From: Shigella phage JK36
Strand: one strand, 5' to 3'
Sequence record: MK962754.1
Length of the DNA stretch: 64,000 nt
Part shown: one piece after another, positions 588-26,419 of the stretch
How the letters are laid out: each line of letters opens with the position of its first letter
How positions within the stretch are numbered: the stretch's first letter is position 1
Notes under the pieces: generated by a model
Database searches by the model: none
What the model saw: only the letters and a program-made list of their open reading frames with translations
What the model was told of the DNA's origin: nothing
Position numbers and translations under genes: made by a program

Positions 588-612
588 TTTGTTCCTATTG
601 TTTTAATTTATG

Positions 613-927: not shown

Positions 928-939
928 TTTTGTTTCCTT

Positions 940-990
940 GTTTGTTTTGATAGAGTAATTATACCATATTAATACTTAAGCGTAAACAAT
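940..990 (-). promoter_or_regulatory. T4-type early promoter / PeSL-like cassette
   Basis: Minus strand reads GTTTAC (-35, plus 982-987) then ~17 nt then TATAAT, then conserved CTATCAAAACAAA leader; upstream of ORF 613..927. Confidence 0.5.
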
Positions 991-1251
991 TTAAGCTTTA
1001 CCGCCAGAAATAATTCCGAAGTTGTTAAAATCATATCCAATATCGTCAACATCTACTTTAGGACTTGCTACAACATAAGCAATTTCACTACGTTTTGCAT
1101 AGGTGTTGATTTCTTTACCATCGCCACCTAAGAAAGAATACCCATTACGTTTTAATGAGCCAAAGTCTTCCGCATCACCAATGAAAGCTTTAACTTTAAA
1201 TTTAGGACCTTTGGCATCTGCTTCAATGATAAATTCTTGATACATTTTCAT
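991..1251 (-). CDS. internal-protein-like capsid-targeted protein (86 aa)
   Basis: N-terminus MKMYQEFIIE (CTS-like); ATG with AAGGA RBS; immediately downstream of denV. Confidence 0.55.
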   Translation of the reverse strand: MKMYQEFIIEADAKGPKFKVKAFIGDAEDFGSLKRNGYSFLGGDGKEINTYAKRSEIAYVVASPKVDVDDIGYDFNNFGIISGGKA

Positions 1252-1257
1252 TTTTCC

Positions 1258-1671
1258 TTAGTAAATTGATTTACCATAGTATTTGTACCAAGTCGGACGT
1301 TGAGCAATTTTTTCATCTAAGCGTGCTTGACTTATCGCAATGGACGCTTCGGACGGGACATAATTATTACGAAATTCGGCAGGGATGTCGGAAATATCCT
1401 GGACAGTCGTGTCCTTGATTTTGAACCCACGTTTCAAGCATTCAGCGATTAGCTCGATTTGACGTAAACGTAAAAATTCGAGTTTGTCGTAAAAGAATGT
1501 TACGTGACCTGTGCCTAAGATAAATGTTGGAGAGATTTTAAAATCCTTTACACGTTTACCGTTTTGAACATGTTTACGGACTGCACCAAATACGCGTGGT
1601 AATTCACGATACTCAGCCATAAGATGTTGGTCGGACAGTTCAGAAACAAGTGTTAAATTGATACGAGTCAT
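1258..1671 (-). CDS. denV: endonuclease V (pyrimidine-dimer DNA glycosylase/AP lyase)
   Basis: Protein from [12 protein letters not shown]... is near-identical in my recollection to T4 DenV (138 aa); start moved to internal ATG matching T4. Confidence 0.9.
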
Positions 1672-1683
1672 AATTTCCTCCAA

Positions 1684-1730
1684 GTAGTTGATGAATGTAT
1701 AGTATCAAAGTCCTTGGAGGAAGTAAACAC
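1684..1730 (-). promoter_or_regulatory. T4-type early promoter / PeSL-like cassette
   Basis: Minus strand GTTTAC (plus 1723-1728) + spacer + TACTATA-like -10, same cassette as other copies; upstream of denV. Confidence 0.5.
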
Positions 1731-2011
1731 TATTTTTCTGAAGCGCCTGAAATATATTTTTCAAGACGTTGTTTCATTAGCGAGCCGTTCTTAGCGATTT
1801 CTTCCGGTTTATCGCACATACGTAACAAGGCTTCAAGCTTAGCGATATCGCTGGTACGTTCAAATTTGCGAGTATCTATCTTACTAGCAAGTTCAGAAAT
1901 ACGTGCTAGTAGACTTTCGGCTTCAACCAAAGCTGCACCTAGCTTAGTTGCAAATGTGTCAGTAGCTTCGTTAAGAATAGATTCTGATAAAAATTCACTA
2001 TATGTTTTCAT
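1730..2011 (-). CDS. internal-protein-like capsid-targeted protein (ipII/ipIII position, 93 aa)
   Basis: Internal start gives [10 protein letters not shown] (CTS-like) with GGAAAG RBS; lies between e and denV where T4 has ipII/ipIII. Confidence 0.6.
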
Positions 2012-2496
2012 ATATACGCTTTCCAAGTTCCTGTTTTAAATGTTGAGATTACGCGTTTCGCGCGATTAGGTGTCTGACGATACCATTTAGATTGGGCTAG
2101 ATTTACTGCCGCTTCATCCCAACGTTTCTGTTGAAGCATACGAAGAGAATTAGTAAAACCGGCGACGCCTGCTACACCCATTTGGAAGACCATATTGACC
2201 AATGCACAACGACGAACTGCATCTAAAGAATCATACACCGGTTTAAGTTTAGCATTACCCAAGATTCCGCGAACGGCTTTATCGACGTCTTCATTAAATA
2301 GCTTTTCGGCCTCATCAAGGGTAATTGTACCGTTGCATTTACGACCGATCATTCTGTCAAGTTCAGCTTTAGCTACGGCTAAAGACGGGTTCTTTGTTAC
2401 TAAATGGCCTATGCCAATCGTCCAAAAGCCTTCAGTGTCTTTGTATAAAGTCAGTCTAAGACCTTCGTCATTACGAAGCATTTCAAATATATTCAT
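2008..2496 (-). CDS. e: T4-type endolysin (lysozyme e)
   Basis: [15 protein letters not shown]...DEAEKLF... about 80% identical by eye to T4 lysozyme incl. catalytic E11/D20/T26 context. Confidence 0.95.
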
Positions 2497-2530
2497 AATA
2501 CCTCCCACGTTTATAGGAGGTATTTATTAC

Positions 2531-2989
2531 TTATAGGAGGGTAGTGAGCACCTTATATAATGATTTGCCCATTACATATTCCCATTGAGAAGGTTTAATT
2601 AAAGCGAATGCATCAAATTCAGGAATCTGTCGTCCGTCTGGGAATGTATGATAGGAATTACAAACACTGTTTCTGAATTGCTCGTGCTCTACAGGGATGG
2701 TATATTGGAACAGATGAATATTCTTATTGTCTGAGTAATGATGTTCGCCTAGGTCTTTCAGGAAGGCAGGGTCATATTGTGTAAACCCAGTTTCTTCTTC
2801 GCATTCACGAATAGCGGCTTCAATAGGAGATTCGCCAGGTTCGACACGGCCTTTAGGAATATCCCAGCGATGAACTAATGCACCTTTAGGACGAGAACCA
2901 GTTACACGGCCCATGAATAATTCTTTATCTTCGGTAAGGAAAATAATACCGGCTGATAGTTCTTTCACTTTATTTTTCTTACTCATCAT
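2531..2989 (-). CDS. nudE: Nudix hydrolase
   Basis: Nudix box GRVEPGESPIEAAIRECEEETG; position right after e as in T4. Confidence 0.85.
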   Translation of the reverse strand: MMSKKNKVKELSAGIIFLTEDKELFMGRVTGSRPKGALVHRWDIPKGRVEPGESPIEAAIRECEEETGFTQYDPAFLKDLGEHHYSDNKNIHLFQYTIPVEHEQFRNSVCNSYHTFPDGRQIPEFDAFALIKPSQWEYVMGKSLYKVLTTLL

Positions 2990-3230
2990 CTCGGTCCCAT
3001 GATTTGGCCATTAATTCGGACATAAATTCTTCAATGCGCGTTTCTTTAGATGGACTTTCACTATTAGAGACCGCAAGTTTGTAATCTGCAATAGGACAGA
3101 ACATATCAAGGTCCATATTAAGGTCGTCTTTGATTTTTTCTTCTGACACATCTTTATCGTATGTGTACAGATAACTATCACATGATTCTGATTTAATGTA
3201 AATTGCTATACTCATCTCAAATTCCTGCAT
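2979..3230 (-). CDS. hypothetical protein (83 aa)
   Basis: ORF with ATG; start overlaps the ECR codons of upstream gene; no recognisable motif. Confidence 0.4.
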   Translation of the reverse strand: MQEFEMSIAIYIKSESCDSYLYTYDKDVSEEKIKDDLNMDLDMFCPIADYKLAVSNSESPSKETRIEEFMSELMAKSWDRDDE

Positions 3231-3709
3231 TCGGTAATAAAACGTTCAACTTCATTATTCTTGGCCTTTATCTTGTCTTTACGTTCCTGTAAACTACTTT
3301 TAACAAGATTAATAATGATGCCTACAGTACCTCCACCAATAATACCACCAATAATACTTACGATAGTAGATGCTAATAAGATAGCAATAATATCAACAAA
3401 ACCGAAAGAACTCACCTTAGTACTAAAAAACCATACCGACGGTACAAATATAATCCATCCTGTTATCCATTGGCACTTATTGAAAAACTTTTCAAGCTCA
3501 GCTTGAGTTGTTCGTATTACTTCATCGATAGGTTGATATCCATTAATGTATCTGTTCACGATAATACCTGCTGGCTGGTCGATTTTAAATTCTTGGCAAA
3601 TATGATTCACTAAGTAGGATGGACATCCTGTCCAATCTACTGAATAGTATGAAATACCTTCGTTGCCATCGTCTATATTAGACCAATATGTTTTGTTAAT
3701 CATTACCAT
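3212..3709 (-). CDS. membrane protein, 'FIxECR-tail' family member (165 aa)
   Basis: Hydrophobic segments (IIAILLASTIVSIIGGIIGGGTVGIIINLV); C-terminal tail ...NNEVERFITECRNLR shared with 4 paralogs. Confidence 0.45.
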   Translation of the reverse strand: MVMINKTYWSNIDDGNEGISYYSVDWTGCPSYLVNHICQEFKIDQPAGIIVNRYINGYQPIDEVIRTTQAELEKFFNKCQWITGWIIFVPSVWFFSTKVSSFGFVDIIAILLASTIVSIIGGIIGGGTVGIIINLVKSSLQERKDKIKAKNNEVERFITECRNLR

Positions 3710-4389
3710 CCTTCCATAGGGAATTCCAGATAAACTTGGGCATTGACACGAATTTCATTGGTAATCTTTTTAACTCGGTCTGTATTACGAGATACACGTC
3801 CGAACCAACGCCATCCGTTACTAATTGCACGAGAACCAGTGTGCCATGTTTGCCAATCAAACTGAAGAAGAGTACGATCTGGAGCTTCCCATTTCTCTAG
3901 TTCACCTTTTTCAATTTTTTCGAGGACTTCTTTGTGCCACTGGCGATAGATAAGTTCGCCATCAGGAATCTGACTGAACTCTGCAGTTCCTGTTGCAAAA
4001 TGAGTAGGACACACGTCAGCGTTAACAAGACCAAGAATATGTTCAGAATGGTAACGAGGGTTGTCATAGTCAGGTTGTCCTGCAGTAATAAAGTGTTGAC
4101 CAACTGGAATATCAGGGCGAGGAACATCGTCATGGTGGTATCCAGGAATAGCAGGATACCAACCAGGCATCAGCATATGAACCCGAGAATCAAATACAAC
4201 ATGTTGATTAGTCCAATCAATTGGGAGATTGGCAATAAAGCTACGAGTGATTGAGCCACCATTATCCCAAGCAAAACCCAAATCACAGTTAAAGAACATT
4301 GGTTCATTTTTGATTCGGTCATTTTGTACGTTATGTGCAAAACTACCTACTGCACGAGCTTGACTATTAAACACTTTAGAACTATTCAT
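3703..4389 (-). CDS. hypothetical protein (228 aa), His-rich motifs
   Basis: Long ORF in operon context; motifs PGWYPAIPGYHHDDVPRPD and HSEHILG; function unknown. Confidence 0.5.
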   Translation of the reverse strand: MNSSKVFNSQARAVGSFAHNVQNDRIKNEPMFFNCDLGFAWDNGGSITRSFIANLPIDWTNQHVVFDSRVHMLMPGWYPAIPGYHHDDVPRPDIPVGQHFITAGQPDYDNPRYHSEHILGLVNADVCPTHFATGTAEFSQIPDGELIYRQWHKEVLEKIEKGELEKWEAPDRTLLQFDWQTWHTGSRAISNGWRWFGRVSRNTDRVKKITNEIRVNAQVYLEFPMEGW

Positions 4390-4390
4390 A

Positions 4391-4696
4391 TTATTTTCCT
4401 CGGCATTCTTTAATGAAATTTTCTAGATTGGTAGATTCAATAGCTTTTTTACGAGCTTCGGCATGTTCTTCTTCAGACAATTTACATTTATAATTGACCC
4501 AGACATTATGGTCGAAACTAGTCGTGGCATATAATAACAATGCTCCAACGAATAGCAAAAACGGCGATAAGAATACAAAACCAGGAACACCATCCATATC
4601 GTACGCCTTTTGTAATACTGCAACAGAAAGAGCTGCGTAAAAAGGTGATGCAAATATTGTTAAAAGGCCAATTCGGTTGGTTTCGCCTAATTTCAT
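4391..4696 (-). CDS. small 2-TM membrane protein, 'FIxECR-tail' family (101 aa)
   Basis: Two hydrophobic helices; C-terminal ...ESTNLENFIKECRGK; ATG with GAGGAGA RBS; PeSL upstream. Confidence 0.5.
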   Translation of the reverse strand: MKLGETNRIGLLTIFASPFYAALSVAVLQKAYDMDGVPGFVFLSPFLLFVGALLLYATTSFDHNVWVNYKCKLSEEEHAEARKKAIESTNLENFIKECRGK

Positions 4697-4711
4697 AATA
4701 TTCTCCTCATG

Positions 4712-4756
4712 TTTTAATAGGACTACTATAATATAGCCCTATCAGTTTGTACACTT
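4712..4756 (-). promoter_or_regulatory. early promoter / PeSL-like cassette
   Basis: ATAGGACTACTATAATATAGCCCTATC stem-loop (GATAGG/CCTATC-type inverted repeat) with -35-like element; upstream of 4391..4696. Confidence 0.5.
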
Positions 4757-4955
4757 ATTTTGACATTTCTTCGATGTCACGACGATACCCATCACGAACT
4801 TCACGAAGAGCTTCAAGGCCACACATAGGCTCGATACCAGTAATGTGAACTTGATTAATCTGATACTCTACATCTTCTAACTGAGCGAAAACATAACGAC
4901 GTTCTGCTGCACAACCAGGTTTAGCTTTACCGAAACGTTTATTCAAAGTAGTCAT
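4755..4955 (-). CDS. hypothetical protein (66 aa)
   Basis: ORF-track start 4973 is GTG; ATG at 4955 (MTTLNKRF...) follows a PeSL cassette. Confidence 0.4.
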   Translation of the reverse strand: MTTLNKRFGKAKPGCAAERRYVFAQLEDVEYQINQVHITGIEPMCGLEALREVRDGYRRDIEEMSK

Positions 4956-4975
4956 TTTTATATCTCCATTCACTC

Positions 4976-5025
4976 ATTTGTTTTGATAGGTCTATAGTAT
5001 CAACAACTACAGACCTTGTAAACTG
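4976..5025 (-). promoter_or_regulatory. early promoter / PeSL-like cassette
   Basis: Minus GTTTAC (plus 5018-5023) + spacer + TACTATAGACC; variant of repeated cassette. Confidence 0.5.
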
Positions 5026-5035
5026 TTTTGCGAAA

Positions 5036-5992
5036 TTATTTGAAAGGTTTTACCATATGGAAATTTTGTTTGAAACGTTTGACGTAATCGTCGTGTCCTA
5101 AGCTTTGGTACATACTTACTACTTTGCTATAATTTTCCCAAGCGAACTCACGGAACCATCCTGATGTGATTGATGTACAGACCTTTTCAAGGGCCATCAT
5201 AAAACTATCACGTGGATGGATTTTAAAGTCGTTAGGAATCTGTGAACGTTCTAACGCTAGTACACATGATTCTTCGTATACGCCGGCCAATTTGACCATT
5301 TCTGGTAATGATTCGAACTTCTCGCGTGAGGTCATGACTTCAGAACCGTCTTTCATATAAAATGTATACGCTGGACGGTCTGTTAGTGCAATGGCTTCAT
5401 GAATAGTATCATGGTCATATGTATAGATGTCACCTTTAAAGAACGCACTTTTAGAAGTGTCAAGAACCGGGTGAGCATAGTTCAAGGTTTCTTTCTGGCG
5501 TTTCAGCATAATTTCAGTAAGTTCATCGTTCAGTGTAACACCTTTACCACGAAGATACTGAATATGGTTCATAGTCTTTAAAAAGAACGGATTATTTTTC
5601 TTGAAACGATGGGACATCTTAATTGCAAGACACATCTCAGGAGTTGCCCAGTAAAACCCGTTCAAACGGTCTTTAGTCAAATTTTTCTTGGCGTATTTTA
5701 AAAGGTCATAAGAAGACGTGAAATCTTCAGGAGTGAGTTCACCGACTAGTTCGCGAACGTTAGTGAGAGCCGGAACGATGTATGCTTCAAAATGAGTTTC
5801 GCGTCCATTATGGAAGCATTTGAAAACTTGGACATCAGGGTTATCTTGGTGAACATATACACCCATCATTTGATTTTTGAATGCATTCCAAGAACATTGG
5901 TCTGCAATAAAGTCCCAATCACTATTTTTAATAGCGCTAGAATCAATAAGACCGTGATAGTGAAGTGCACGAGAACCAATAACTAACATCAT
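5036..5992 (-). CDS. hypothetical protein (318 aa), possible nucleotidyltransferase-fold N-terminus
   Basis: Largest novel ORF; N-terminal IGSRAL...(17 aa)...SDWDFIAD resembles the G[GS]...D-x-D signature of pol-beta-type NTases (weak). Confidence 0.5.
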   Translation of the reverse strand: MMLVIGSRALHYHGLIDSSAIKNSDWDFIADQCSWNAFKNQMMGVYVHQDNPDVQVFKCFHNGRETHFEAYIVPALTNVRELVGELTPEDFTSSYDLLKYAKKNLTKDRLNGFYWATPEMCLAIKMSHRFKKNNPFFLKTMNHIQYLRGKGVTLNDELTEIMLKRQKETLNYAHPVLDTSKSAFFKGDIYTYDHDTIHEAIALTDRPAYTFYMKDGSEVMTSREKFESLPEMVKLAGVYEESCVLALERSQIPNDFKIHPRDSFMMALEKVCTSITSGWFREFAWENYSKVVSMYQSLGHDDYVKRFKQNFHMVKPFK

Positions 5993-6020
5993 AATATTTT
6001 CCTCGGATTAATTCATTAAC

Positions 6021-6260
6021 TTAAATTTCACGACATGCGATATTATATTCATCCCAGAGGTCATCATGTGAAGCCTCTACCAATGGAACGATTGTACCGT
6101 TTATGTCTTCATTATAAGGGCAAATTGTACAGTGCGCATCTTCGAATCGGATGCCTTTGTGTTCAGATTTTTTATAACGCATATCGAATATCTTTGCAAA
6201 CTTTTCACGAGTAATGGTTTTACCAACCACTTTGGTTCCGATACTTTCGTAATAAATCAT
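6021..6260 (-). CDS. small Cys-containing protein (79 aa)
   Basis: Start moved to ATG with GGAG RBS (MIYYESIG...); contains HCTICP motif; follows PeSL. Confidence 0.45.
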   Translation of the reverse strand: MIYYESIGTKVVGKTITREKFAKIFDMRYKKSEHKGIRFEDAHCTICPYNEDINGTIVPLVEASHDDLWDEYNIACREI

Positions 6261-6273
6261 TGTGGACTCCATT

Positions 6274-6320
6274 TGTTTTGATAGGACTACTATAACATAG
6301 CCCTATCTTGTTGTAAACTG
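6274..6320 (-). promoter_or_regulatory. early promoter / PeSL-like cassette
   Basis: Minus GTTTAC (plus 6313-6318), spacer, TATAGT, stem-loop GATAGG..CCTATC. Confidence 0.55.
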
Positions 6321-6322
6321 TT

Positions 6323-6520
6323 TTAGCAAGAATAACTAGATGATACCCAGCCTTGAACAGTGATACTATTGTGGGATAATGAGATCGCGTCCTGGAGATT
6401 CAGACCTGCGTTATCTTCAATCCATAATGTAACTTCTTCGCGTTCTTCTGTTGCAATTTGGAACAGGTTTTCCAGAGCAGCTACTGCCGTACGTACAGCA
6501 CAATCTAATTCACGAGACAT
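6323..6520 (-). CDS. small protein, 'WVxSSxxC' paralog 3 (65 aa)
   Basis: C-terminus ...QGWVSSSYSC; N-terminal helix similar to neighbours; tandem with 6530..6802 and 6812..7117. Confidence 0.5.
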   Translation of the reverse strand: MSRELDCAVRTAVAALENLFQIATEEREEVTLWIEDNAGLNLQDAISLSHNSITVQGWVSSSYSC

Positions 6521-6529
6521 ATTGTTTCC

Positions 6530-6802
6530 TTAGCAAGTGTGAGAAGATGCGACCCAACCACCAGTTTCGAGGCTCAGGTTGTAGTCGTATTGGTAAACGT
6601 CAGCCCATTCAGCATAGCCGTTTTTTGTACAACGTTCAAGATCGGCTTTAAGATGTCCGGGTGAATGATAGGTTCCACCCATACCATAAGCTGGGTACAA
6701 GTTGAATGTTGTGTTTTGTTTATCAGCAATTTCTTTGGCAGCCTCAATAGCTGCATAGATTTTTGCTACAGCTTCAGCCAGTTCGGTTTGTTCTTTAGAC
6801 AT
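6530..6802 (-). CDS. small protein, 'WVxSSxxC' paralog 2 (90 aa)
   Basis: C-terminus ...GGWVASSHTC; stop overlaps RBS of next gene. Confidence 0.5.
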   Translation of the reverse strand: MSKEQTELAEAVAKIYAAIEAAKEIADKQNTTFNLYPAYGMGGTYHSPGHLKADLERCTKNGYAEWADVYQYDYNLSLETGGWVASSHTC

Positions 6803-6811
6803 AATGATTCC

Positions 6812-7117
6812 TTAGCACAACGCAGAAGACGAAACCCAAGCACCTTCAGTAATAACGTATCCATTACCTTCACGCTTAACATCGCCGCCATTATTTTCAA
6901 TTTCATCTTTCATCCACTGGGATACGATTTCACCCTTAGGATAATAAGTACGACCGCTACCATAATCACCTACAGAAAATGATACGGCATATTGGTCTGC
7001 GATCTTTGTTGCTTCTTCTTCGATACGTTCAGCTTGATTCAGAAGTTTATAAATTGCATCTGAAGCGGATTTGGCATCATTAAACTCTGGTACTTTAATT
7101 TCAATAATCTTACTCAT
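6812..7117 (-). CDS. small protein, 'WVxSSxxC' paralog 1 (101 aa)
   Basis: C-terminus ...GAWVSSSALC; translationally coupled (ATGA overlap) to upstream membrane-protein gene. Confidence 0.5.
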   Translation of the reverse strand: MSKIIEIKVPEFNDAKSASDAIYKLLNQAERIEEEATKIADQYAVSFSVGDYGSGRTYYPKGEIVSQWMKDEIENNGGDVKREGNGYVITEGAWVSSSALC

Positions 7118-7473
7118 TTTCTACATTCCTTAATAAAGTTTTCGATTGTTTCATTTTCACGTCTAGCTAGGAGTTCATTATAACTAATCATTTGAGAAGC
7201 GTAAACCTTTTTATTTTTCTTGTTGTGGTTTATAAAATCGTAGTAAAAATAGACTACAGTACAAAATGATGCGATGGATGCAAAGGCTTGGGTGTACCGT
7301 AAGTCCTGCCATTGGTCTGTGAATCCACCAGTGTTCCCTATAAATCCTAACACAACGCCGTCAATAAGAAATCCAACTAATCCAAAGGCAAATCCCATGC
7401 CAATACTCATAATAAAAATTAGAATGTTCTCACCAAGAGAAGGCCATACGGTTAAGAGTTGAGGCTTTTGCAT
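7114..7473 (-). CDS. membrane protein, 'FIxECR-tail' family (119 aa)
   Basis: Hydrophobic helices; C-terminal ...ENETIENFIKECRK. Confidence 0.5.
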   Translation of the reverse strand: MQKPQLLTVWPSLGENILIFIMSIGMGFAFGLVGFLIDGVVLGFIGNTGGFTDQWQDLRYTQAFASIASFCTVVYFYYDFINHNKKNKKVYASQMISYNELLARRENETIENFIKECRK

Positions 7474-7877
7474 CTTATTTCCTTAACGAATTCCATAGCT
7501 TCTTCATATTCATACTTTTTAACAGCTTCATCATACTGAGCTTGGGCTTTTGCGCACTGAACTCTCCATTCTCTTACTCGAGCTCTGTGATGACGGCCTT
7601 GGTGCCAATATCCAATCCAATTAATAGGCATCAATAAAAACGGTACAATAAGTGGTGCGACGAACATTAATGAAAATGCTGCATCAGACGATATAACTTC
7701 ACTAGAATCTAAAACAGCTCCTATAATCATAAAGATTAAAAATGCTAAAGCTAAAATAGGGCCAAATAGTACTTCATTTGGGATTAATTTACGCTTATAT
7801 TCATACGCCCAGGGCTTACTTGGCATGTATAGGGTTGGCTTTGACATATTCTCTACATTCCATAATAAATTGCTCAA
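7452..7877 (-). CDS. membrane protein, divergent 'FIxECR-tail' family (141 aa; alternative start at 7847)
   Basis: Two hydrophobic helices; tail ...EEAMEFVKEIRCKSLNS; start ambiguous between 7877 and 7847. Confidence 0.45.
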   Translation of the reverse strand: MSNLLWNVENMSKPTLYMPSKPWAYEYKRKLIPNEVLFGPILALAFLIFMIIGAVLDSSEVISSDAAFSLMFVAPLIVPFLLMPINWIGYWHQGRHHRARVREWRVQCAKAQAQYDEAVKKYEYEEAMEFVKEIRCKSLNS

Positions 7878-8439
7878 GGATTAAATTGTTAGTGAAATTA
7901 GGACTAACAACCATAGTTTCATAAAGCGCATCAATAGCACTTAAAGCATCAACTCTTTTAAGCAAAGGCTTGCCTTCATACATAGTTTCAGAATCGATGA
8001 TTAACGTAAAGTAATATTTTTTATTATCGACTAGAACTTCTGTATCGATATAAAACATATTAGACCTCAGAAGCTTATCTCTAAAACCATAATAATCTTC
8101 AGAGCGTTCGCTGATATATTCCCATTCAGTGTTTAAACAACAAACAGACCATGTAGGAGCAACGAAATCAGTGAATCTAATATCATGGTCTGCAACTAGT
8201 TTAGCAATAGCTCCGATATCATGAATCATAATACCTGGGGCTAATAAAGATTTTCTGCTATGGCTAGCCGTTTTCTCGGTGGTCTCATAAGAAGACGACC
8301 AGTACCATTTACGTCCGGTTGCAACATATCGTAATGAATCAACTAAAGACGTAGGTGGATTTACCTTATCTCGGAACTCTTCGAACATTGAGTCAATATC
8401 ATTATTTTGGTTTCGCATGTTAACTCCTTTATTATCCAA
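7816..8439 (-). CDS. hypothetical protein (207 aa) with internal FIMECR motif near C-terminus
   Basis: ORF in operon; ...LEQFIMECREYVKANPIHAK near C-terminus; no obvious TM segment. Confidence 0.5.
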   Translation of the reverse strand: MDNKGVNMRNQNNDIDSMFEEFRDKVNPPTSLVDSLRYVATGRKWYWSSSYETTEKTASHSRKSLLAPGIMIHDIGAIAKLVADHDIRFTDFVAPTWSVCCLNTEWEYISERSEDYYGFRDKLLRSNMFYIDTEVLVDNKKYYFTLIIDSETMYEGKPLLKRVDALSAIDALYETMVVSPNFTNNLILEQFIMECREYVKANPIHAK

Positions 8440-8467
8440 AAGGAGGACCGGAGTCCTCCGTATTATT

Positions 8468-9061
8468 TTATTTCAAAGAGTTAATATATTCTTGTACATC
8501 AGCAGAAGTGGTTTCGACGCCGGCTGGAGTGCCATTGAACGTTTCAACACGAGTCAGAGTGTCTTCGATATCAACCTTAGTCAGTGCAGCGATTTCAATT
8601 ACATCATCGGCCGTAGAGATACCAAGGGCATTGGCTGCTCGAGTTTCACGAATGTATTCGAGTTTGATTGCCAGGTTCTGACGAGCATCGTCAAGTTCAA
8701 CCACCTTACGAGCAATTTCAATTCGCATAGCGGCATACCCGTCAGCTTTTGTATTAAGTTGTTCGGCAGTTCGACGATACAGAAGACCAAGCTTAGCATG
8801 CATAGTAACATCTTGTCCTTCAGCCAGGAGCTTACGAATTTCACGTTCCTTAGAAGCGGCTTGCTTGTTCTTTTCATTAACAAGTTCGCGAATACGTTTT
8901 TCTTCATTAATAGATTTAACAGAAGCCGTTTTTAGTTCTTTGATTTGTGTAATCAACTTATCTGCGGCTGCGTTATACTGTTCTTCGACAGTCAGATTTT
9001 TAGCCATAGCAGTACCCAGTTTAGTGCGGATGAATTCAACAAGTTTCTTCAGTGTGTTCAT
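8468..9061 (-). CDS. coiled-coil protein (197 aa), PspA/IM30-like heptad pattern (tentative)
   Basis: ORF-track start is TTG; ATG at 9061 with AAAGG RBS; long charged alpha-helical sequence. Confidence 0.45.
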
Positions 9062-9131
9062 ATTATTACCTTTCAATTGGTTGTTTATTATCCAATGAGA
9101 GCATTATACTCTGCTCTCAAGAGTTTGTAAA

Positions 9132-9359
9132 TTATTTTTTAATCAAATTGACATAAAACTTGGCGTCTTCGGGGTGCATGCCTTCGCAGTATTCTTCAAC
9201 CATGAACTTCTTAACAGCTTCATAAGGACCACTCAGATTAAGCTCAGTTGTCCAGAACTTGGAATCTTGGACTGAATCGATACGAACTTCAGGGTGGCGG
9301 TTGCGAATAACTTCTTCTGTGTATTCATAATCAACGACATCAATACTAACTTTAGCCAT
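9132..9359 (-). CDS. hypothetical protein (75 aa)
   Basis: ATG at 9359 preceded by PeSL cassette. Confidence 0.45.
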   Translation of the reverse strand: MAKVSIDVVDYEYTEEVIRNRHPEVRIDSVQDSKFWTTELNLSGPYEAVKKFMVEEYCEGMHPEDAKFYVNLIKK

Positions 9360-9365
9360 TTTGTT

Positions 9366-9418
9366 TTCCTCTTGATTTGATAGGACTACTATAACATAAA
9401 CTTACTTAGATGTAAATT
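9366..9418 (-). promoter_or_regulatory. early promoter / PeSL-like cassette
   Basis: TTGATAGGACTACTATAACATA plus -35-like TTTACA (minus); upstream of 9132..9359. Confidence 0.5.
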
Positions 9419-9570
9419 ATTTCAACGTCACCTTTAGCTGCTTTATAACCTTCAGCCCAAGATACAACAGAGTTTTTATCCGAGGATTCAAATTCAGGCA
9501 TTGGACTTTCACCAATATTCACACAGTATGTTTCTTCATTTTCATCGAACCAAATAATTAAAGTAGTCAT
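9406..9570 (-). CDS. hypothetical protein (54 aa)
   Basis: ATG at 9570 (MTTLIIWF...) with GAGGAG RBS inside conserved cassette; upstream ORF-track extension lies within promoter. Confidence 0.4.
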   Translation of the reverse strand: MTTLIIWFDENEETYCVNIGESPMPEFESSDKNSVVSWAEGYKAAKGDVEIIYI

Positions 9571-9632
9571 TTTGTTTACTCCTCTGTAGTTGATAAGTCT
9601 ATAGTACCACCATCCTTGGCGTTTGTACATCA
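9571..9632 (-). promoter_or_regulatory. early promoter / PeSL-like cassette (43 nt identical to copy at 46917-46959)
   Basis: Leader+RBS+start cassette TAGTCATTTTGTTTACTCCTCTGTAGTTGATAAGTCTATAGTA identical at two loci. Confidence 0.55.
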
Positions 9633-10133
9633 TTTATTTTTAATTTTGCAAATTTTTTCTGCTTCAGCAATTGCAGCGTCAATGATGCTTTGTGCAATTT
9701 TATTACTAGTTGACCTGGCAATCACACTAAGAACAATTTCTTTTTCTTCACCACCCCAACCCCAAGTCCTTTGTTCGTGGGTACCTTTAACTACAGCTGA
9801 AACTTCAACAGAACGTCCACCATCAGAAGTTTTAACATCTACAACCCAATCACCATCTTTCTCTTCTACCCTTGATTTATCCCAAGAAATACTAATATAT
9901 GATTCGCCGTCAATAGAAGTCGCCGGGTTTTTCTCTACCGTAAGACCTTCACTTTCCAGCCATTCAATAGTATTTGCGCATAAATCAGAAGAACACCTCA
10001 TCGGAAACCGGCAAGATTTTTCACCTTTAGATGCTGCATCGTACATCTTTTCCAAAATACGCTTTTGCACGTTTTTAAAAATAGTTTCAGCAGATTCTTC
10101 AGATTTTTTATTCAGTTCAGTGTAAAGACTCAT
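9630..10133 (-). CDS. hypothetical protein (167 aa)
   Basis: ORF preceded by PeSL cassette; no recognisable motif. Confidence 0.5.
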   Translation of the reverse strand: MSLYTELNKKSEESAETIFKNVQKRILEKMYDAASKGEKSCRFPMRCSSDLCANTIEWLESEGLTVEKNPATSIDGESYISISWDKSRVEEKDGDWVVDVKTSDGGRSVEVSAVVKGTHEQRTWGWGGEEKEIVLSVIARSTSNKIAQSIIDAAIAEAEKICKIKNK

Positions 10134-10137
10134 AACA

Positions 10138-10192
10138 TTTTCCTCTATGGTTGATAAGTCTATAGTATCATGTCCTTAGAAGAAGTAAACAT
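10138..10192 (-). promoter_or_regulatory. early promoter / PeSL-like cassette
   Basis: Minus GTTTAC (plus 10184-10189) + 17 nt + TACTATAGACTTATCAACC. Confidence 0.55.
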
Positions 10193-10220
10193 CTTTATGA
10201 AATATTTTTATGCCCTAGAT

Positions 10221-10250
10221 ACCAAAAGGCCCCAACCATAAGGAAGGGGC
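10221..10250 (-). terminator. rho-independent terminator (minus strand)
   Basis: GCCCC-(12 nt loop)-GGGGC hairpin followed on minus strand by TTTTGG; 7 nt after stop of 10257..10721. Confidence 0.55.
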
Positions 10251-10256
10251 ATTCTA

Positions 10257-10721
10257 TTATTTAATTTGTTTAGCAGACCAGATACGGTCTTTAATAAGTT
10301 TTTGGATATCTTCAACATACTCAAGGCTATGAGCGTGAGGATTATCTTTGAAGCTATGTGCTCGTGCCAGTTTCTGGCCTTCTGTTTTGATTACTAAAAG
10401 CTCTTTAAGAATTGCTTCATACTTAGAAATAATTCCTTTGGCGATATTTTTTTCTTGAGCTGCTTTAGGGTCTGTTTTTGGCGCAGGTGCTTTACCTGTA
10501 GCTTTCTGGAACAATTCACCTGATGCAGCTAGGCTTTTAAAAACTCGGCTAACAGTATTAGCATTAGTAAAACCTTCGGCTTTAAAATCTCTAATAAAAC
10601 GGAAACGTTCTTCATCAGAGGCGTCTTTGTAAGAATATTTACCTGCTTGAATTGCTGCAATCGCAGCGGCTTTTACATCTGAACTAGATTGTTCAGTCAA
10701 AAATTCAGCGTATGATTTCAT
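10257..10721 (-). CDS. internal-protein-like capsid-targeted protein (154 aa)
   Basis: N-terminus MKSYAEFLTE resembles CTS; followed by own terminator. Confidence 0.5.
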   Translation of the reverse strand: MKSYAEFLTEQSSSDVKAAAIAAIQAGKYSYKDASDEERFRFIRDFKAEGFTNANTVSRVFKSLAASGELFQKATGKAPAPKTDPKAAQEKNIAKGIISKYEAILKELLVIKTEGQKLARAHSFKDNPHAHSLEYVEDIQKLIKDRIWSAKQIK

Positions 10722-10764
10722 GTTGCTTTTCCTAAGTTAATTAACTTATCTATTTATTATTATG

Positions 10765-10794
10765 CCAAAAAGCCCCGACCTTTCGGAAGGGGCT
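10765..10794 (-). terminator. rho-independent terminator (minus strand)
   Basis: AGCCCC-(loop)-GGGGCT hairpin followed on minus strand by TTTTTGG. Confidence 0.55.
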
Positions 10795-10799
10795 AAGCC

Positions 10800-11000
10800 T
10801 TGCGGCAACCTTGTCGGGGTTCCACCTGCTAAGGCAAGTGTTTGTACGAAACGCCGGGATTCGAACCCGGTTATTAAGCAGTTGACGCTACTCAATATTT
10901 TTAAAAGGCCATATCTCGACCATATCCGAACGTTCCGTCAAAAACGCTACTCGGCTTACGGCAAAGATATTTCCTCGAATCGATAATTCTGTGCGCCGTT
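10800..11000 (-). ncRNA. candidate small stable RNA with tRNA-like T-arm (possible species-1/2 RNA analogue)
   Basis: No credible ORF; minus strand contains CCGGGTTCGAATCCCGG (perfect T-arm-like hairpin) and a GNRA hairpin, directly upstream of a terminator; boundaries uncertain. Confidence 0.25.
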
Positions 11001-11105
11001 TCTGCTGTGATGTAAGGGGATATTAATGAATCATAAAGATTTATTAAGACCAGTCCTTACTCAGGGAACATCAGTCCGACGACTTACCGGTAGCGACCCG
11101 GCTTC

Positions 11106-11450
11106 TTATTTTGGCATATCATCAATTTGTTCTCTACGTCTACGCCATAGATTAATCGCTTCATTGGCACATTCTGCGTTTGGTATATGACGGCAATAAT
11201 ATAATGATTCGCGTTTCTGGAACCGATGTTGTAATGGAATTTCGTTTAAAAGGTCTTTACGGTCAAAGTATTCAAAACTAGTTAACCCGGAACGGTTTTT
11301 AAGAAACTTCCAATGTCCGAATTCATTTTGAAAATAGACATAATCAGCATGCTGATACAGCGAATTAATTAACCTATCGGAAATAACTGTTTCACGTTCG
11401 TTAAAATAAAACGTTAAGTCATGAACTACCAGATAAATATTGCCTTTCAT
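11106..11450 (-). CDS. hypothetical protein (114 aa)
   Basis: ATG at 11450 with GAGGA RBS, immediately downstream of tRNA cluster. Confidence 0.4.
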   Translation of the reverse strand: MKGNIYLVVHDLTFYFNERETVISDRLINSLYQHADYVYFQNEFGHWKFLKNRSGLTSFEYFDRKDLLNEIPLQHRFQKRESLYYCRHIPNAECANEAINLWRRRREQIDDMPK

Positions 11451-11468
11451 ATTTTCCTCACTTATAAT

Positions 11469-11544
11469 TGGTCGAGACAGTAGGGATCGAACCTACGACC
11501 TAGGACTTAGAAGGTCCTTGCTCTTCCTTCTGAGCTATGCCTCG
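11469..11544 (-). tRNA. tRNA-Arg (anticodon TCT)
   Basis: Hand-folded cloverleaf on minus strand: acceptor CGAGGCA/TGTCTCG, T-loop GGTTCGATCC, anticodon loop CTTCTAA, CCA encoded. Confidence 0.8.
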
Positions 11545-11548
11545 TATT

Positions 11549-11623
11549 TGGCGGACGTGATAGGATTCGAACCTATAACCAATCGCTTAACAGGCGATCG
11601 CTCTGCCATTGAGCTACACATCC
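11549..11623 (-). tRNA. tRNA-Asn (anticodon GTT)
   Basis: Acceptor GGATGTG/CACGTCC, T-loop GGTTCGAATCC, anticodon loop CTGTTAA, CCA encoded; not in T4's set. Confidence 0.75.
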
Positions 11624-11627
11624 AAAT

Positions 11628-11714
11628 TGGTGGGGAGTGATGGAGTCGAACCACCCGAGTCGCAATGACAATGGATTTACAGTCCACACCGCTACCTCTA
11701 CGGGATAACTCCCC
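11628..11714 (-). tRNA. tRNA-Tyr (anticodon GTA), long variable arm
   Basis: Acceptor GGGGAGT/ACTCCCC, anticodon loop CTGTAAA, long variable arm, CCA encoded; not in T4's set. Confidence 0.75.
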
Positions 11715-11726
11715 TAATTCATAATT

Positions 11727-11801
11727 TGGTGGCCCTGGGTGGAATTGAACCACCATCTGGCGATTATGAGTCGCTTGCTTGAACCTTCCAGCTACAGGGC
11801 C
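11727..11801 (-). tRNA. tRNA with anticodon CAT (Met, or Ile2 if lysidinylated)
   Basis: Acceptor GGCCCTG/CAGGGCC, T-arm GGTGGTTCAATTCCACC, anticodon loop CTCATAA. Confidence 0.7.
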
Positions 11802-11802
11802 T

Positions 11803-11878
11803 TGGTGCTGATTGACGGAATCGAACCGCCGACCTTCTCATTACAAGTGAGTTGCTCTACCTACTGAGCTAAATCAGC
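11803..11878 (-). tRNA. tRNA-Thr (anticodon TGT)
   Basis: Acceptor GCTGATT/AATCAGC, T-loop GGTTCGATTCC, anticodon loop CTTGTAA. Confidence 0.8.
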
Positions 11879-11883
11879 AAAAC

Positions 11884-11973
11884 TGGCGGAGGCGATAGGA
11901 TTTGAACCTATGAGTCGCCGGAGCGACTGCCGGTTTTCAAGACCGGTGCATTAAACCACTCTGCCACGCCTCC
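11884..11973 (-). tRNA. tRNA-Ser (anticodon TGA), long variable arm
   Basis: Acceptor GGAGGCG/CGCCTCC, anticodon loop CTTGAAA, long variable arm, CCA encoded. Confidence 0.8.
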
Positions 11974-11975
11974 AG

Positions 11976-12049
11976 TCTCCATACAAGGATTTGAACCTTG
12001 GACCTCCTGATCCCAAATCAGGCGCTCTACCAAACTGAGCTACACGGAG
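11976..12049 (-). tRNA. tRNA-Pro (anticodon TGG), CCA not encoded
   Basis: Acceptor CTCCGTG/TATGGAG, anticodon loop TTTGGGA; 3' end followed by CTG not CCA. Confidence 0.75.
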
Positions 12050-12059
12050 TAAATTAAAT

Positions 12060-12133
<74 letters not shown>

Positions 12134-12138
12134 AAATT

Positions 12139-12225
12139 TGGTGCGAGAAGTGGGACTCGAACCCACAAGGAAATCATTCCGCAGCATTTTAAGTGCTGTG
12201 CCTTTACCAATTTGGCCATTCTCGC
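12139..12225 (-). tRNA. tRNA-Leu (anticodon TAA), long variable arm
   Basis: Acceptor GCGAGAA/TTCTCGC, anticodon loop CTTAAAA, long variable arm. Confidence 0.8.
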
Positions 12226-12226
12226 G

Positions 12227-12299
12227 CTGGGAATAAAGGACTCGAACCTTTGCATCCTGGAATCAAAATCCAGTGCCTTACCAACTTGGCTAATTCCCA
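12227..12299 (-). tRNA. tRNA-Gln (anticodon TTG), CCA not encoded; 1 nt from tRNA-Leu
   Basis: Acceptor TGGGAAT/ATTCCCA, T-arm AAGGTTCGAGTCCTTT, anticodon loop TTTTGAT. Confidence 0.75.
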
Positions 12300-12368
12300 A
12301 TTATTAACAAAGGCTCTCTAACAAGAACCCTTGATGATAGAGGGTATTAATCAGTGCGATATGAGTTA

Positions 12369-12393
12369 ATAATAACAAATAATTCTTAAAGCA
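12369..12393 (-). promoter_or_regulatory. possible MotA-dependent middle promoter for tRNA cluster
   Basis: Minus strand TGCTTTA + 12 nt + TATTAT about 70 nt upstream of first tRNA. Confidence 0.3.
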
Positions 12394-12396
12394 TAT

Positions 12397-12690
12397 TTAC
12401 CATTTATGATAATACATATTTACGATGCAGTCAAGACCCAAAGGATTCTTGAAAATATCATATTCAAGAGGACCTTTTTCCGTTTCAATAAAGAAATCAA
12501 AATTTACTGTATTAAATTTACGGTCTTCCTTCACTAATTTAACTTGAGAAGATGAACGGTCAATGTAAACCTTTTCAACTTCAAAACATGTTAAAATGCC
12601 ATAATCATCAATCAAGGCTTTAGCCGCGTCTTGATCATATTTATATCCATTTTCAATAGACGATACTTTAGCATAAAGAATCATTATCAA
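12397..12690 (-). CDS. hypothetical protein (97 aa)
   Basis: ORF in minus-strand early operon; no recognisable motif. Confidence 0.4.
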   Translation of the reverse strand: MIMILYAKVSSIENGYKYDQDAAKALIDDYGILTCFEVEKVYIDRSSSQVKLVKEDRKFNTVNFDFFIETEKGPLEYDIFKNPLGLDCIVNMYYHKW

Positions 12691-13085
12691 CCTTCATCAA
12701 CAATAGTATGAGTATGGGCATTTACAATTTGCCACCAATCAAAGCGATTAGAACCATACATCGGGTTGTTCTCATTTTCTTTGATAATGTCACGGAGTTC
12801 ATCTTCAGTAGCGGCTTTCGCGATTAAATCAGCATATCCACCGCGAGGATAATAATTATCACCTGCAAAAAGTAAAAAGTTCGGTTTAATATTATTGAAC
12901 TCTTCAAGAGTAATAACTTTTCCTGTCGGTTGAACAATCTCTACATATTTATATCCTAATTTTTGAGCAGCATCTACTGCTTCAAGCAAAGTATCATGAG
13001 CCCATCCAATTTGACAACCTGGCTTTTCAGATGGATTAGCCTGATAATCCGCGTACACTTTATACATTCTATTCACCTTTTGCAA
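12687..13085 (-). CDS. hypothetical protein (about 126-132 aa)
   Basis: ORF overlapping neighbours by 4 nt (coupled); start may be at internal Met (MYKVYADYQ). Confidence 0.4.
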   Translation of the reverse strand: MQKVNRMYKVYADYQANPSEKPGCQIGWAHDTLLEAVDAAQKLGYKYVEIVQPTGKVITLEEFNNIKPNFLLFAGDNYYPRGGYADLIAKAATEDELRDIIKENENNPMYGSNRFDWWQIVNAHTHTIVDEG

Positions 13086-13275
13086 TTTTATCCATAACGA
13101 TAGCGATTAAACCGATTAGAAATGCTACTACCAATGAGATAGAATTTTCTGTTGTTGTCAGTAGTCCACAAATGAATCCTACAAACATCGAAAAACTAAA
13201 AGCCATTGAAGCAATTACTACAGCAACATTACGAATCAGTTCAGCGCGTTTCATTTTATTTCTCCATTTACTCAT
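13069..13275 (-). CDS. small membrane protein (68 aa)
   Basis: Two hydrophobic helices (VAVVIASMAFSFSMFVGFICGLL / LVVAFLIGLIAIVM); ATG after PeSL cassette. Confidence 0.4.
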   Translation of the reverse strand: MSKWRNKMKRAELIRNVAVVIASMAFSFSMFVGFICGLLTTTENSISLVVAFLIGLIAIVMDKIAKGE

Positions 13276-13277
13276 TT

Positions 13278-13322
13278 GATTTGATAGGACTACTATAACA
13301 TAATCCTATCATCATGTAAACT
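13278..13322 (-). promoter_or_regulatory. early promoter / PeSL-like cassette
   Basis: TTGATAGGACTACTATAACATAATCCTATC stem-loop; minus GTTTAC at plus 13316-13321. Confidence 0.55.
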
Positions 13323-13324
13323 AT

Positions 13325-13612
13325 TTACAGAAGAGTTTTTGCAATAATTTTAAGCTGAGCTACAGAAATGTGCTTAGCTTTAAACAGTGCAGTCTCTTCA
13401 GCCGGAGAGATAACAATAGTAGCGCCGTCTTTCTTAGCAGACCATCCATCCCCTAAGTAAACAGTACCTTTTACTTCTTCGCCGTCAACCAGACTAATCA
13501 TTGGTTTACCCTCACGTCCTTTATTTGCTTTAATAACTTCGGAAGTAAGGGTTGCTTCGGTCAGAGTAGAAACATTAGCAACAGGTGATATAAATTCTTT
13601 ATAGGTTTTCAT
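13325..13612 (-). CDS. ipI: internal protein I-like capsid-targeted protein (95 aa)
   Basis: MKTYKEFISPVANVSTLTEA... CTS-like; 95 aa and position adjacent to 57B as T4 ipI; symbol by position only. Confidence 0.55.
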   Translation of the reverse strand: MKTYKEFISPVANVSTLTEATLTSEVIKANKGREGKPMISLVDGEEVKGTVYLGDGWSAKKDGATIVISPAEETALFKAKHISVAQLKIIAKTLL

Positions 13613-13629
13613 TTTATTTCCTTGAGGTT

Positions 13630-13682
13630 GTTTATTTGATAGGATGATAGTAACACACCATCATCCTTATGTAAACTGTTTT
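13630..13682 (-). promoter_or_regulatory. early promoter / PeSL-like cassette
   Basis: GATAGGATGATAGTAACACACCATCATCC inverted repeat; minus GTTTAC at plus 13671-13676; upstream of ipI-like gene. Confidence 0.55.
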
Positions 13683-13689
13683 GTGAAAA

Positions 13690-14375
<686 letters not shown>

Positions 14376-14379
14376 TTTA

Positions 14380-15114
14380 TTACCTTAAGATTGTTTCAAT
14401 TTTAGAATAAAGCTCTTCTAAAGAGCCGTCGTTTGTAATAACTAAATCGCCTTCTTCAATAGGCAACCCAGCTTCTGTAATATGTTTATCGGTGGATTCC
14501 GTACCAGAGCGAACCACATGAATAACTGTAGCACCCATCGCTCTAGCGGTTTCCATTTCATGGACTTGGCGTGTATCGGTTACAACATAGTAATCGAAAT
14601 CACTTCCAATATAATCCATATAGTTTAATGCAAAAAGTTTAACCCAATACATACGGTCAAATAAATTAACGACAACATCCGTACCGAGGGCTTGCATAAG
14701 ACGGCGGATCGACCATGTGTCGTTGATATTATTTATAGCTTCGCGCAGGGCTTCATATGGTTTAATATCTAGATACGAATATCCACCTTCTAACGATGAT
14801 AATACTTTAACATTATTAATCGGTAAATAATGACTTTGCAAATAAATTAGCGCTTCTTCCAATAATTCAATAACATCCAACTTATTGAGATTTAATGGTG
14901 TTTCACGGTCGTATCCAATGCCTTCAAAGTATTCGTATTTCAACTCGGTGAATACATCAGGGTTTTCAGCATGTTTACGACCCCATGCGATTGCTAGAGC
15001 GTCTTTAATCGGATATGCTAATTGGTATTTTACGGATTTAAAGTTTGAATTGATGTAATCAGCAGTAGTGTCTTTACCACTACGTTTGATGCCACTTAAA
15101 AAGATTAGCTCCAT
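14380..15114 (-). CDS. 1: deoxynucleoside monophosphate kinase (gp1)
   Basis: MELIFLSGIKRSGKDTTADY... P-loop; very similar to T4 gp1 (241 aa). Confidence 0.95.
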   Translation of the reverse strand: MELIFLSGIKRSGKDTTADYINSNFKSVKYQLAYPIKDALAIAWGRKHAENPDVFTELKYEYFEGIGYDRETPLNLNKLDVIELLEEALIYLQSHYLPINNVKVLSSLEGGYSYLDIKPYEALREAINNINDTWSIRRLMQALGTDVVVNLFDRMYWVKLFALNYMDYIGSDFDYYVVTDTRQVHEMETARAMGATVIHVVRSGTESTDKHITEAGLPIEEGDLVITNDGSLEELYSKIETILR

Positions 15115-26387: not shown

Positions 26388-26390
26388 TTA

Positions 26391-26415: not shown

Positions 26416-26419
26416 TATC

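Follow-up and report, generated by a model that had tools for sequence, protein, structure and literature searches.

Shigella phage JK36 carries on its minus strand a family of repeated elements which are very probably T4-type early-promoter and leader cassettes of the promoter early stem-loop (PeSL) kind, in an RB69-like phage of the genus Mosigvirus. We analyzed a stretch of 64,000 nucleotides (nt) from sequence record MK962754.1, called the window below, and all window counts cover these 64 kb of the genome. The core motif of the elements, TAYHRTNNNYYYATYAA, matches 12 sites, only on the minus strand, while 0.26 matches are expected in shuffled sequences. The first bases of the -10 hexamers, by which the elements are named here, lie at 963, 1704, 4730, 4999, 6294, 9393, 9606, 10167, 13297, 13652, 46959 and 62292, and these are exactly the twelve sites pointed out in the initial annotation, all of which are real. 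When relatives are compared, the junctions of three cassette insertions or deletions (indels), one allele swap and several module swaps fall in such elements.

Predicted early promoters ahead of small genes

The window was placed by megablast in the genus Mosigvirus (RB69 group, T4-like coliphages), with p000y matching at 98% over window 1-15000 and APCEc01 at 99.9% over 45000-49000. According to the annotation of relatives, window 1-14 kb is the denV-e-e.x-tRNA-ipI hyperplastic region, with its genes on the minus strand, and the late structural block lies on the plus strand at about 15-48 kb, then g23, g24, rnlB, hoc, alt and g54. Eleven of 13 promoters are located in window 1-14 kb, and the other two are at the plastic sites g23-g24 and alt-g54.

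In all twelve elements a 17-nt spacer is followed by the common core TAYWRT-N3-YYYATCAA, which begins with the -10, then by a leader, a Shine-Dalgarno sequence (SD) and the ATG of a minus-strand open reading frame (ORF), which confirms this part of the layout first proposed for them. The proposed -35 hexamer, GTTTAC, is exact in 9 of 12 elements, and reads GTGTAC, ATGTAC or ATTTAC in the rest. The -10 hexamer is TACTAT, TATAGT or TATAAT, with TG one base upstream in most elements, and the leader of 22-32 nt includes a GGAG-type SD with an A-rich stretch behind it, before the ATG. The 20 nt upstream of the -35 are 60-90% A+T. In 11 of 12 elements the preceding gene stops -12 to +16 nt from the -35; the exception is element 46959, which has no co-directional gene upstream. 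This composition agrees with the T4 early consensus as given by Nolan 2006 (GTTTAC at -36 to -31, A-rich -40s, a TGn or GT-rich stretch before the -10, TAnnnT). By sequence, and by their RB69 orthologues predicted as early promoters (Pe), all twelve elements and a 13th promoter at 9131 are predicted sigma70 early promoters of the T4 type, oriented with the downstream gene. For RB69, 57-58 early promoters were predicted, including the orthologues of neighbouring elements as well as Pe:72567 and Pe:109605, orthologues of both loci of a 43-nt repeat described below, and their C-rich -3 to -1 was remarked (Nolan 2006, PMC1524935, Additional file 3).

In the mechanism that we propose, each element would be a host sigma70 promoter composed of an A-rich UP-like tract with the upstream stop codon, a GTTTACA -35, the 17-nt spacer, a -10 (TAYWRT) often extended by TGn, and a C/T-rich discriminator, with transcription most likely starting at the A of ATCAA (window 951, 1692, 4718, 4987, 6282, 9381, 9594, 10155, 13285, 13640, 46947 and 62280). 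We infer this promoter step from the sequence together with orthology to the RB69 predictions.

From the window, five relatives and 120 IMG/VR loci, 172 distinct elements were compiled. The core search pattern, TAYHRT N3 YYYATYAA, was built from the copies, and the IMG/VR loci were retrieved by pattern with the spacer left free; an exact 28-mer of the shared leader gave 0 matches in IMG/VR. BLAST against a phage collection found sequences about 84% identical from -10 to SD ahead of denV, nrdC, alc and regB in other genera. Generally, the ORFs downstream of the window elements match PHROGs of unknown function, and the leaders resemble the RegB/S1 consensus GGAGRAYARAA (GGAG plus an A-rich stretch). 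The longest exact matches between elements are 28, 23, 23 and 21 nt after the 43-nt pair. An Rfam search returned 10 tRNAs only, with no match at the elements, and a literature search for genome-wide start-site maps of T4 or RB69 gave nothing usable.

Stem-loops around the -10

The initial annotation placed the -10 of each element within an inverted repeat. A strong hairpin is indeed found in 5 of 12 elements (4730, 4999, 6294, 13297 and 13652), while the other seven, including both copies of the 43-nt repeat, have none. In these five, the fold of the spacer, the -10 and 14 nt reaches -14.5 to -16 kcal/mol (p<=0.002 against spacer shuffles), and the whole -35-to-ATG fold has a z-score of -2.4 to -4.2, with -4.5 for the denV element 1704. 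Element by element, a stem-loop is present in these five and in the 9131 promoter, takes the form of an SD variant in denV, and is absent in six. For elements 10167 and 46959, folds that would sequester the SD do not reach significance (z -0.7 and -1.6).

Among the 172 elements, 43 contain a stem by our criterion (ungapped, score at least 8, spacer against the -10/discriminator/start segment), compared with 1.1 expected by spacer shuffling and 9.2 by spacer swaps. There are 19 different 3'-arm sequences, each with a complementary spacer. From this excess and the 19 compensated arm types, we conclude that the stem is under selection, in a subset of elements only. On the sense strand, the stems comprise 452 Watson-Crick pairs and 20 G·T pairs, with 0 A·C or other mismatches. 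Such a G·T-only spectrum points to a single-stranded structure of the sense strand, either RNA arriving from upstream or the non-template DNA strand. Moreover, a co-directional ORF lies directly upstream of all 40 testable hairpin elements and of 97 of 123 hairpin-less ones (p=4e-4), although the P-values are optimistic because the 172 elements are partly related by descent. The 5' arm covers about -27 to -16 and the 3' arm about -8 to +3, and therefore transcripts begun at the element itself lack the 5' arm.

These observations fit a scheme in which, in about a quarter to a third of elements, the free spacer would have become complementary to the -10/discriminator/start-site segment or, in denV, to the SD. 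The hairpin would form only on the non-template DNA strand or in RNA that reads through from the gene upstream, most likely serving to attenuate or terminate read-through or else to mark the 3' end of that RNA, as was shown for one RB49 PeSL stem-loop. Going further, the hairpin might be a dual-coded intercistronic insulator on the sense strand (an attenuator, pause site or 3'-end stabiliser without a U-tract), folded only by upstream transcripts, so that the cassettes would be transcriptionally autonomous and its presence or absence tunable across T4-like phages; we put this forward tentatively, as slightly less than an even chance.

The five hairpin elements are all on the minus strand. Element 4730 (4694-4754) reads GTGTACA-17-TATAGT-agt-CCTATTAA, with a hairpin at 4715-4744 (z -3.95) and leader AACATGAGGAGAATATTATG; the junction of the ORF66 indel is here. 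Element 4999 (4953-5023) reads GTTTACA-17-TACTAT-aga-CCTATCAA, with a hairpin at 4988-5016 formed by GGUCUGUAGU and ACUAUAGACC (z -2.4), and element 6294 (6258-6318) reads GTTTACA-17-TATAGT-agt-CCTATCAA, with a hairpin at 6280-6307 formed by GAUAGGGCUAU and AUAGUAGUCCUAUC (z -3.4). The remaining two are element 13297 (13252-13321; hairpin 13282-13311, z -4.2), which is chimeric relative to NicPhage, and element 13652 of the ipI-like gene (13610-13676; hairpin 13641-13667 formed by GGAUGAUGGUG and UACUAUCAUCC, z -3.6). The 13th promoter, which is without the YYYATCAA core (9059-9131, minus strand), is that of the e.6 orthologue and reads TTTACA-17-TATAAT, with a hairpin at 9096-9119 around the -10 (-15.8 kcal/mol, z -3.35). 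In RB69, Pe:72069, upstream of e.6, is the equivalent of this promoter by position.

The denV promoter, element 1704 (1669-1728, minus strand), is built differently. Its spacer arm UUCCUCCAAG is perfectly complementary to the SD-containing CUUGGAGGAA, giving a helix at 1675-1722 (-18.3 kcal/mol, z -4.5), and this hairpin is conserved in relatives. The SD would be masked in read-through RNA and free in RNA from the proximal promoter, so that the hairpin would silence translation of the read-through RNA. A recurrent spacer motif, CCAAGGA(C/T)GG, is found in elements without the -10 hairpin (1704, 9606, 10167 and several IMG/VR elements). In denV the partner of this motif is the SD, while the related leader of 9606 (CAACTACAGAGGAG, cf. 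CAACTACTTGGAGG) pairs no longer, and the spacer and leader of element 9606 may represent a decayed SD-masking helix.

Cassette gain, loss and exchange among relatives

For the indel comparison, window 1-15000 was aligned with four Mosigvirus relatives by local BLAST and the junctions were inspected base by base. Seven of 25 breakpoint clusters fall within the 5.3% of the sequence made up of elements (P=2.5e-4), and several others are no more than 30 nt away from one. The ORF54 cassette (9397-9609, minus strand), whose ORF matches phrog_5461 of unknown function, has a length of 213 nt, which is the spacing of elements 9393 and 9606. SHSML-52-1 and NicPhage do not carry this cassette and have one chimeric element joining the upstream half of 9606 to the leader of 9393, with the crossover inside YYTATCAA. 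This absence is probably a deletion, because ORF54 is present in RB69 and the ORF with its flanks has matches of about 84% in Tequatrovirus phages. Similarly, the ORF66 cassette (4755-5016, minus strand), consisting of an ORF at 4755-4955 (phrog_6200, function unknown) and one element, is absent from LF82-4 and G2469, where one chimeric element remains, its crossover placed at the -35. In NicPhage, an extra internal-protein gene lies between two elements identical at 47 of 48 positions, and the window lacks this gene and carries the single hybrid element 13297.

Parts of elements are exchanged as well. ORF167 in p000y and G2469 has the leader AACATGAGGAGAATATT, which in the window precedes ORF101; the ORF167 promoter of the window, element 10167 (10131-10191, minus strand), has a leader module that varies among relatives and no significant hairpin. 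ORF61 has another promoter module in SHSML-52-1 and LF82-4, with a compensated hairpin of its own. In the g23-g24 gap, LF82-1 and ATK48 carry a strongly diverged ORF89 allele (MNKLNFIRTTL...) and a homing endonuclease gene, and homology with the window stops at the SD in LF82-1 and at ATCAA in ATK48. The swapped segments (564-1493 of locus L003 from LF82-1 and 564-1223 of locus L004 from ATK48) correspond to window 46654-46923, and the swap may be an endonuclease-driven co-conversion tract with its right end in the promoter leader.

The comparison with PeSLs made in the initial annotation is apt, since the window elements have PeSL anatomy and the relatives show cassette gain and loss with junctions inside elements. 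The elements offer 15-48 nt of near-identity in direct orientation every 0.2-1.5 kb, and recombination between them would delete, insert or exchange the ORF or ORFs between and reshuffle promoter and leader sub-modules. The recombination step is shown by the comparison of relatives, and its enzymology is presumed.

The 43-nt repeat TAGTCATTTTGTTTACTCCTCTGTAGTTGATAAGTCTATAGTA occurs exactly twice in the window, as initially reported (0 occurrences expected in shuffles). Copy 1 (9564-9606, minus strand) runs from the -10 TACTAT through the probable start (A of ATCAA), the leader and the SD GAGGAG to the ATGACTA of ORF54. Copy 2 (46917-46959, minus strand) is the same module from -10 to ATGACTA ahead of ORF89 between g23 and g24. 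On the minus strand the 43-mer reads TACTAT-AGA-CTTATCAA-CTACAGAGGAGTAAACAAA-ATGACTA, in which the last seven bases are the ORF start. Extended to 9564-9610, the first locus is identical to the second at 46 of 47 positions, and in APCEc01 the two copies are also identical at 43 of 43. The two elements differ in their -35 and spacer halves, and ORF54 and ORF89 are unrelated beyond Met-Thr, belonging to different PHROGs of unknown function. Element 9606 itself (9568-9630, minus strand; RB69 Pe:72567) reads ATGTACA-17-TACTAT-aga-CTTATCAA followed by the rest of the module, without a hairpin; its neighbour, element 9393 of the frd.3 orthologue (9357-9417, minus strand), holds the ORF54 stop codon in its spacer and has no hairpin.

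Element 46959 (46921-46983, minus strand; RB69 Pe:109605) stands in front of ORF89 (46654-46923). A plus-strand late-promoter box of gene 24, TATAAATA (46990-46997), lies within the A/T-rich region upstream of this element, 28 nt before the gene 24 ATG (47025); the -35 of the element is at 46977-46983, and the divergent early and late promoters at window 46977-47003 have about 25 nt in common. Two GC-rich tetraloop hairpins, 78% similar and with T-runs on their flanks, are at 46608-46657 and 26373-26422 (GGGAGACTTCGGTCTCCC and GGGAGCCTTCGGGCTCCC). The former is probably a bidirectional terminator, because it lies between the convergent g23 and ORF89. In gene 23 (major capsid protein), an 845-nt tandem duplication (44578-45422 and 45423-46267, one mismatch, 45262 vs 46107) leads to a frameshift that splits g23 into ORFs 44188-45558 and 45474-46601, and APCEc01 has one intact copy; the duplication most likely arose in assembly or circularisation, as an overlap of the circularly permuted genome that was left untrimmed, and is then not biological.

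Five minus-strand ORFs have a common start of about 26 nt (565-590, 905-930, 1229-1254, 1989-2014 and 13590-13615), which encodes MKTY(K)EF(I), the sequence that targets T4-type internal proteins to the capsid; the ORFs are annotated as internal head or virion proteins in relatives, and the number carried varies. One of the internal-protein genes (MKTYKEFI...) follows element 963 (925-987, minus strand), which reads GTTTACG-17-TATAAT-tac-TCTATCAA with its leader and ATG and has no hairpin. This common N-terminal coding sequence extends the recombination homology past the promoter. Element 62292 (62255-62316, minus strand) precedes a 97-aa ORF between alt and gene 54 and has a weak hairpin only. 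An array of 10 tRNA genes lies at 11472-12299 on the minus strand. Among the inspected relatives, p000y has ten tRNA genes, SHSML-52-1, NicPhage and G2469 two each (Arg, Met) and LF82-4 one (Met) with a homing endonuclease gene in the tRNA region, so that the tRNA block is a further presence/absence polymorphism.

Alternative explanations and known systems

The elements might be no more than strong early promoters, kept alike by selection for recognition by RNA polymerase, the ribosome and RegB, with no special role in recombination, and gene content would then differ through homing endonucleases or illegitimate recombination ending in intergenic DNA, which here is almost wholly promoter. The likeness of about 84% ahead of the unrelated denV, nrdC, alc and regB in other genera fits such functional constraint, the tiny intergenic space leaves a viable indel nowhere to end but in an element, homing endonuclease genes adjoin the swapped g23-g24 allele, and the ORF54 and ORF66 junctions have only about 7-8 nt in common. 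However, the near-identical elements of NicPhage flank exactly the gene that the window is without, where one hybrid copy is left, and the overlapping subject coordinates of adjacent high-scoring segment pairs are the signature of repeat-mediated deletion. In addition, promoter and leader sub-modules are exchanged while the ORFs stay unchanged, and mini-circles from PeSL to PeSL were shown experimentally in RB49 and phi1 (PMC2839356). We therefore regard constraint without recombination as unlikely. A role of the inverted repeat as DNA is rated lower still, and we think it improbable that it serves as a site for a dimeric regulator, a nuclease-attracting cruciform acting as a recombination hot spot, or a terminator of antisense plus-strand late transcription. 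The palindrome is centred on the -10 and a moderately T-rich stretch follows the hairpin on the plus strand, but the arm sequences vary (19 types) with pairing kept, which argues against a sequence-specific protein, and an operator of that kind was rejected on this ground. The ratio of 20 G·T to 0 A·C on the sense strand, where plus-strand RNA would have A·C, disfavours both a plus-strand antisense terminator and a symmetric cruciform, and hairpins are found only behind co-directional ORFs. A hairpin in the single non-template DNA strand is possible.

For the 43-nt pair, the identity was initially taken as direct evidence of ORF shuffling into the late-gene cluster. Recent gene conversion, or a cassette recently transposed to the g23-g24 gap from the e.8 region, would explain why the copies agree at every position in the window and APCEc01 while other element pairs reach at most 28 nt, and the three differences between the copies in RB69 could mean homogenisation in the window's lineage. 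We nevertheless give this little probability. About 137 Mosigvirus records, RB69 among them, have ORF89 and this promoter at the same site, and SHSML-52-1 keeps the g23-g24 copy (46/47) though its partner, the ORF54 cassette, is lost; the upstream halves and the ORFs of the pair are unrelated. Copy 1 is unchanged in RB69 and p000y, and all three RB69 differences (3 of 43 from the window) are in the g23-g24 copy, where the adjoining ORF is split, which suggests decay in RB69 and not conversion in the window. To call the identity direct evidence of shuffling is thus an overstatement; because RB69 has both leaders, about 137 records have ORF89 in place and SHSML-52-1 retains its copy, we take the pair as two paralogous copies of one regulatory module, duplicated or converted long ago and attached to two unrelated ORFs, and not as the mark of a recent late-cluster insertion. 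Function probably maintains the module, through its SD, its start context and a GGAG with an A-rich stretch that resembles a RegB/S1 target. Better evidence of exchange at g23-g24 is the allele swap in LF82-1 and ATK48, with homology stopping in the leader.

Several points weigh against reading the elements as PeSL-type cassettes. Promoter activity, the start site and any terminator activity are predicted from sequence. No U-tract was found after the hairpins, where the sense strand runs on as AUCAAAACAAA, and a generic terminator scan did not flag them, so that classical intrinsic termination is doubtful. Seven of 12 elements are without the stem-loop and are therefore plain early promoters, not PeSLs, under a strict definition. 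The homing endonuclease gene at the g23-g24 swap could be the driver of that exchange. Finally, the ORF54 and ORF66 crossovers lie in only about 7-8 nt of common sequence, which is short for T4 homologous recombination, and therefore microhomology-mediated events or more similar ancestral elements must be assumed.

In RB49 and phi1, PeSLs were described (Arbiol 2010, PMC2839356) as elements in which the upstream gene stops in an AT-rich tract and a sigma70-like early promoter, a stem-loop, an SD and an ATG come next. The stem-loop, which contains G-T pairs, most often lies in the interval from -35 to -10 or overlaps the -10. PeSLs are found in hyperplastic regions, on the flanks of indels; one PeSL stem-loop lowers lacZ expression like rrnB T1, and neighbouring PeSLs recombine into mini-circles (PMC2839356). 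They were later extended to PST/T4 and nt-1/KVP40 (Comeau 2014, PMC4122927). From the latter paper we had considered that PeSL stem-loops lie upstream of the promoter and hence differ in anatomy from ours, but this was dropped, since PMC2839356 places most of them between -35 and -10 or over the -10. The JK36 elements share with PeSLs the order of parts, the hyperplastic clustering ahead of small ORFs of unknown function, and the indel and replacement junctions within elements. In contrast to PeSLs, they belong to the genus Mosigvirus, which is outside both PeSL papers ("RB69" was not found by a term search of PMC2839356), and their -35 is GTTTACA, as in T4, instead of TTGACA. Their stems are A/T-rich with covarying arms, whereas those of PeSLs are polyG/polyC, and they have a strongly conserved YYYATCAA start-site core and a stem-loop in only about 25-40% of copies.

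Other systems are comparable in part. The paper with the RB69 predictions does not mention embedded hairpins, common leaders or a gene-shuffling role (stem, palindrome and inverted repeat: 0 matches in PMC1524935). A promoter inside a hairpin controls translation of the T4 genes e, soc, 49 and I-TevI, with late or middle promoters (PMC3014915). The denV element is like these in that read-through RNA can pair the SD and RNA from the proximal promoter is without the 5' arm; unlike them, its internal promoter is early, and most window hairpins cover the -10 and start site, not the SD. Arbiol et al. drew the analogy of integron gene cassettes (PMC2839356), which are likewise small promoter-associated ORF units bounded by repeated structured sites that may circularise. 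The phage elements differ from them in having no dedicated integrase or attC-type site, and general or microhomology-mediated recombination is presumed.

The T-even internal-protein loci, for which PMC4122927 cites work of 1994 by Repoila and co-workers, reportedly have a conserved 5' region (promoter, SD and MKTY(K/Q)EFI) with varying gene number and order. As in those loci, the window, SHSML-52-1 and NicPhage differ by whole internal-protein gene cassettes. Unlike there, ORFs for other proteins (ORF54, ORF66) are also affected, and the junctions are placed within the promoter.

In summary, the phenomenon is already known from PeSLs, and Mosigvirus is an added group. Added by this analysis are junctions at base level, the covariation, a mismatch spectrum of G·U only and the link with an upstream ORF; as far as we found, the G·U-only spectrum and the strict upstream-ORF association are absent from the PeSL papers. 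The covariation and strand asymmetry support a single-stranded structure of the sense strand, probably RNA, whose proposed role as an attenuator is directly testable. The PeSL picture thereby reaches the RB69/Mosigvirus group, home of many therapeutic coliphage candidates, in which the elements predict the sites of accessory-gene difference between otherwise near-identical phages and represent natural self-expressing insertion sites for engineering.

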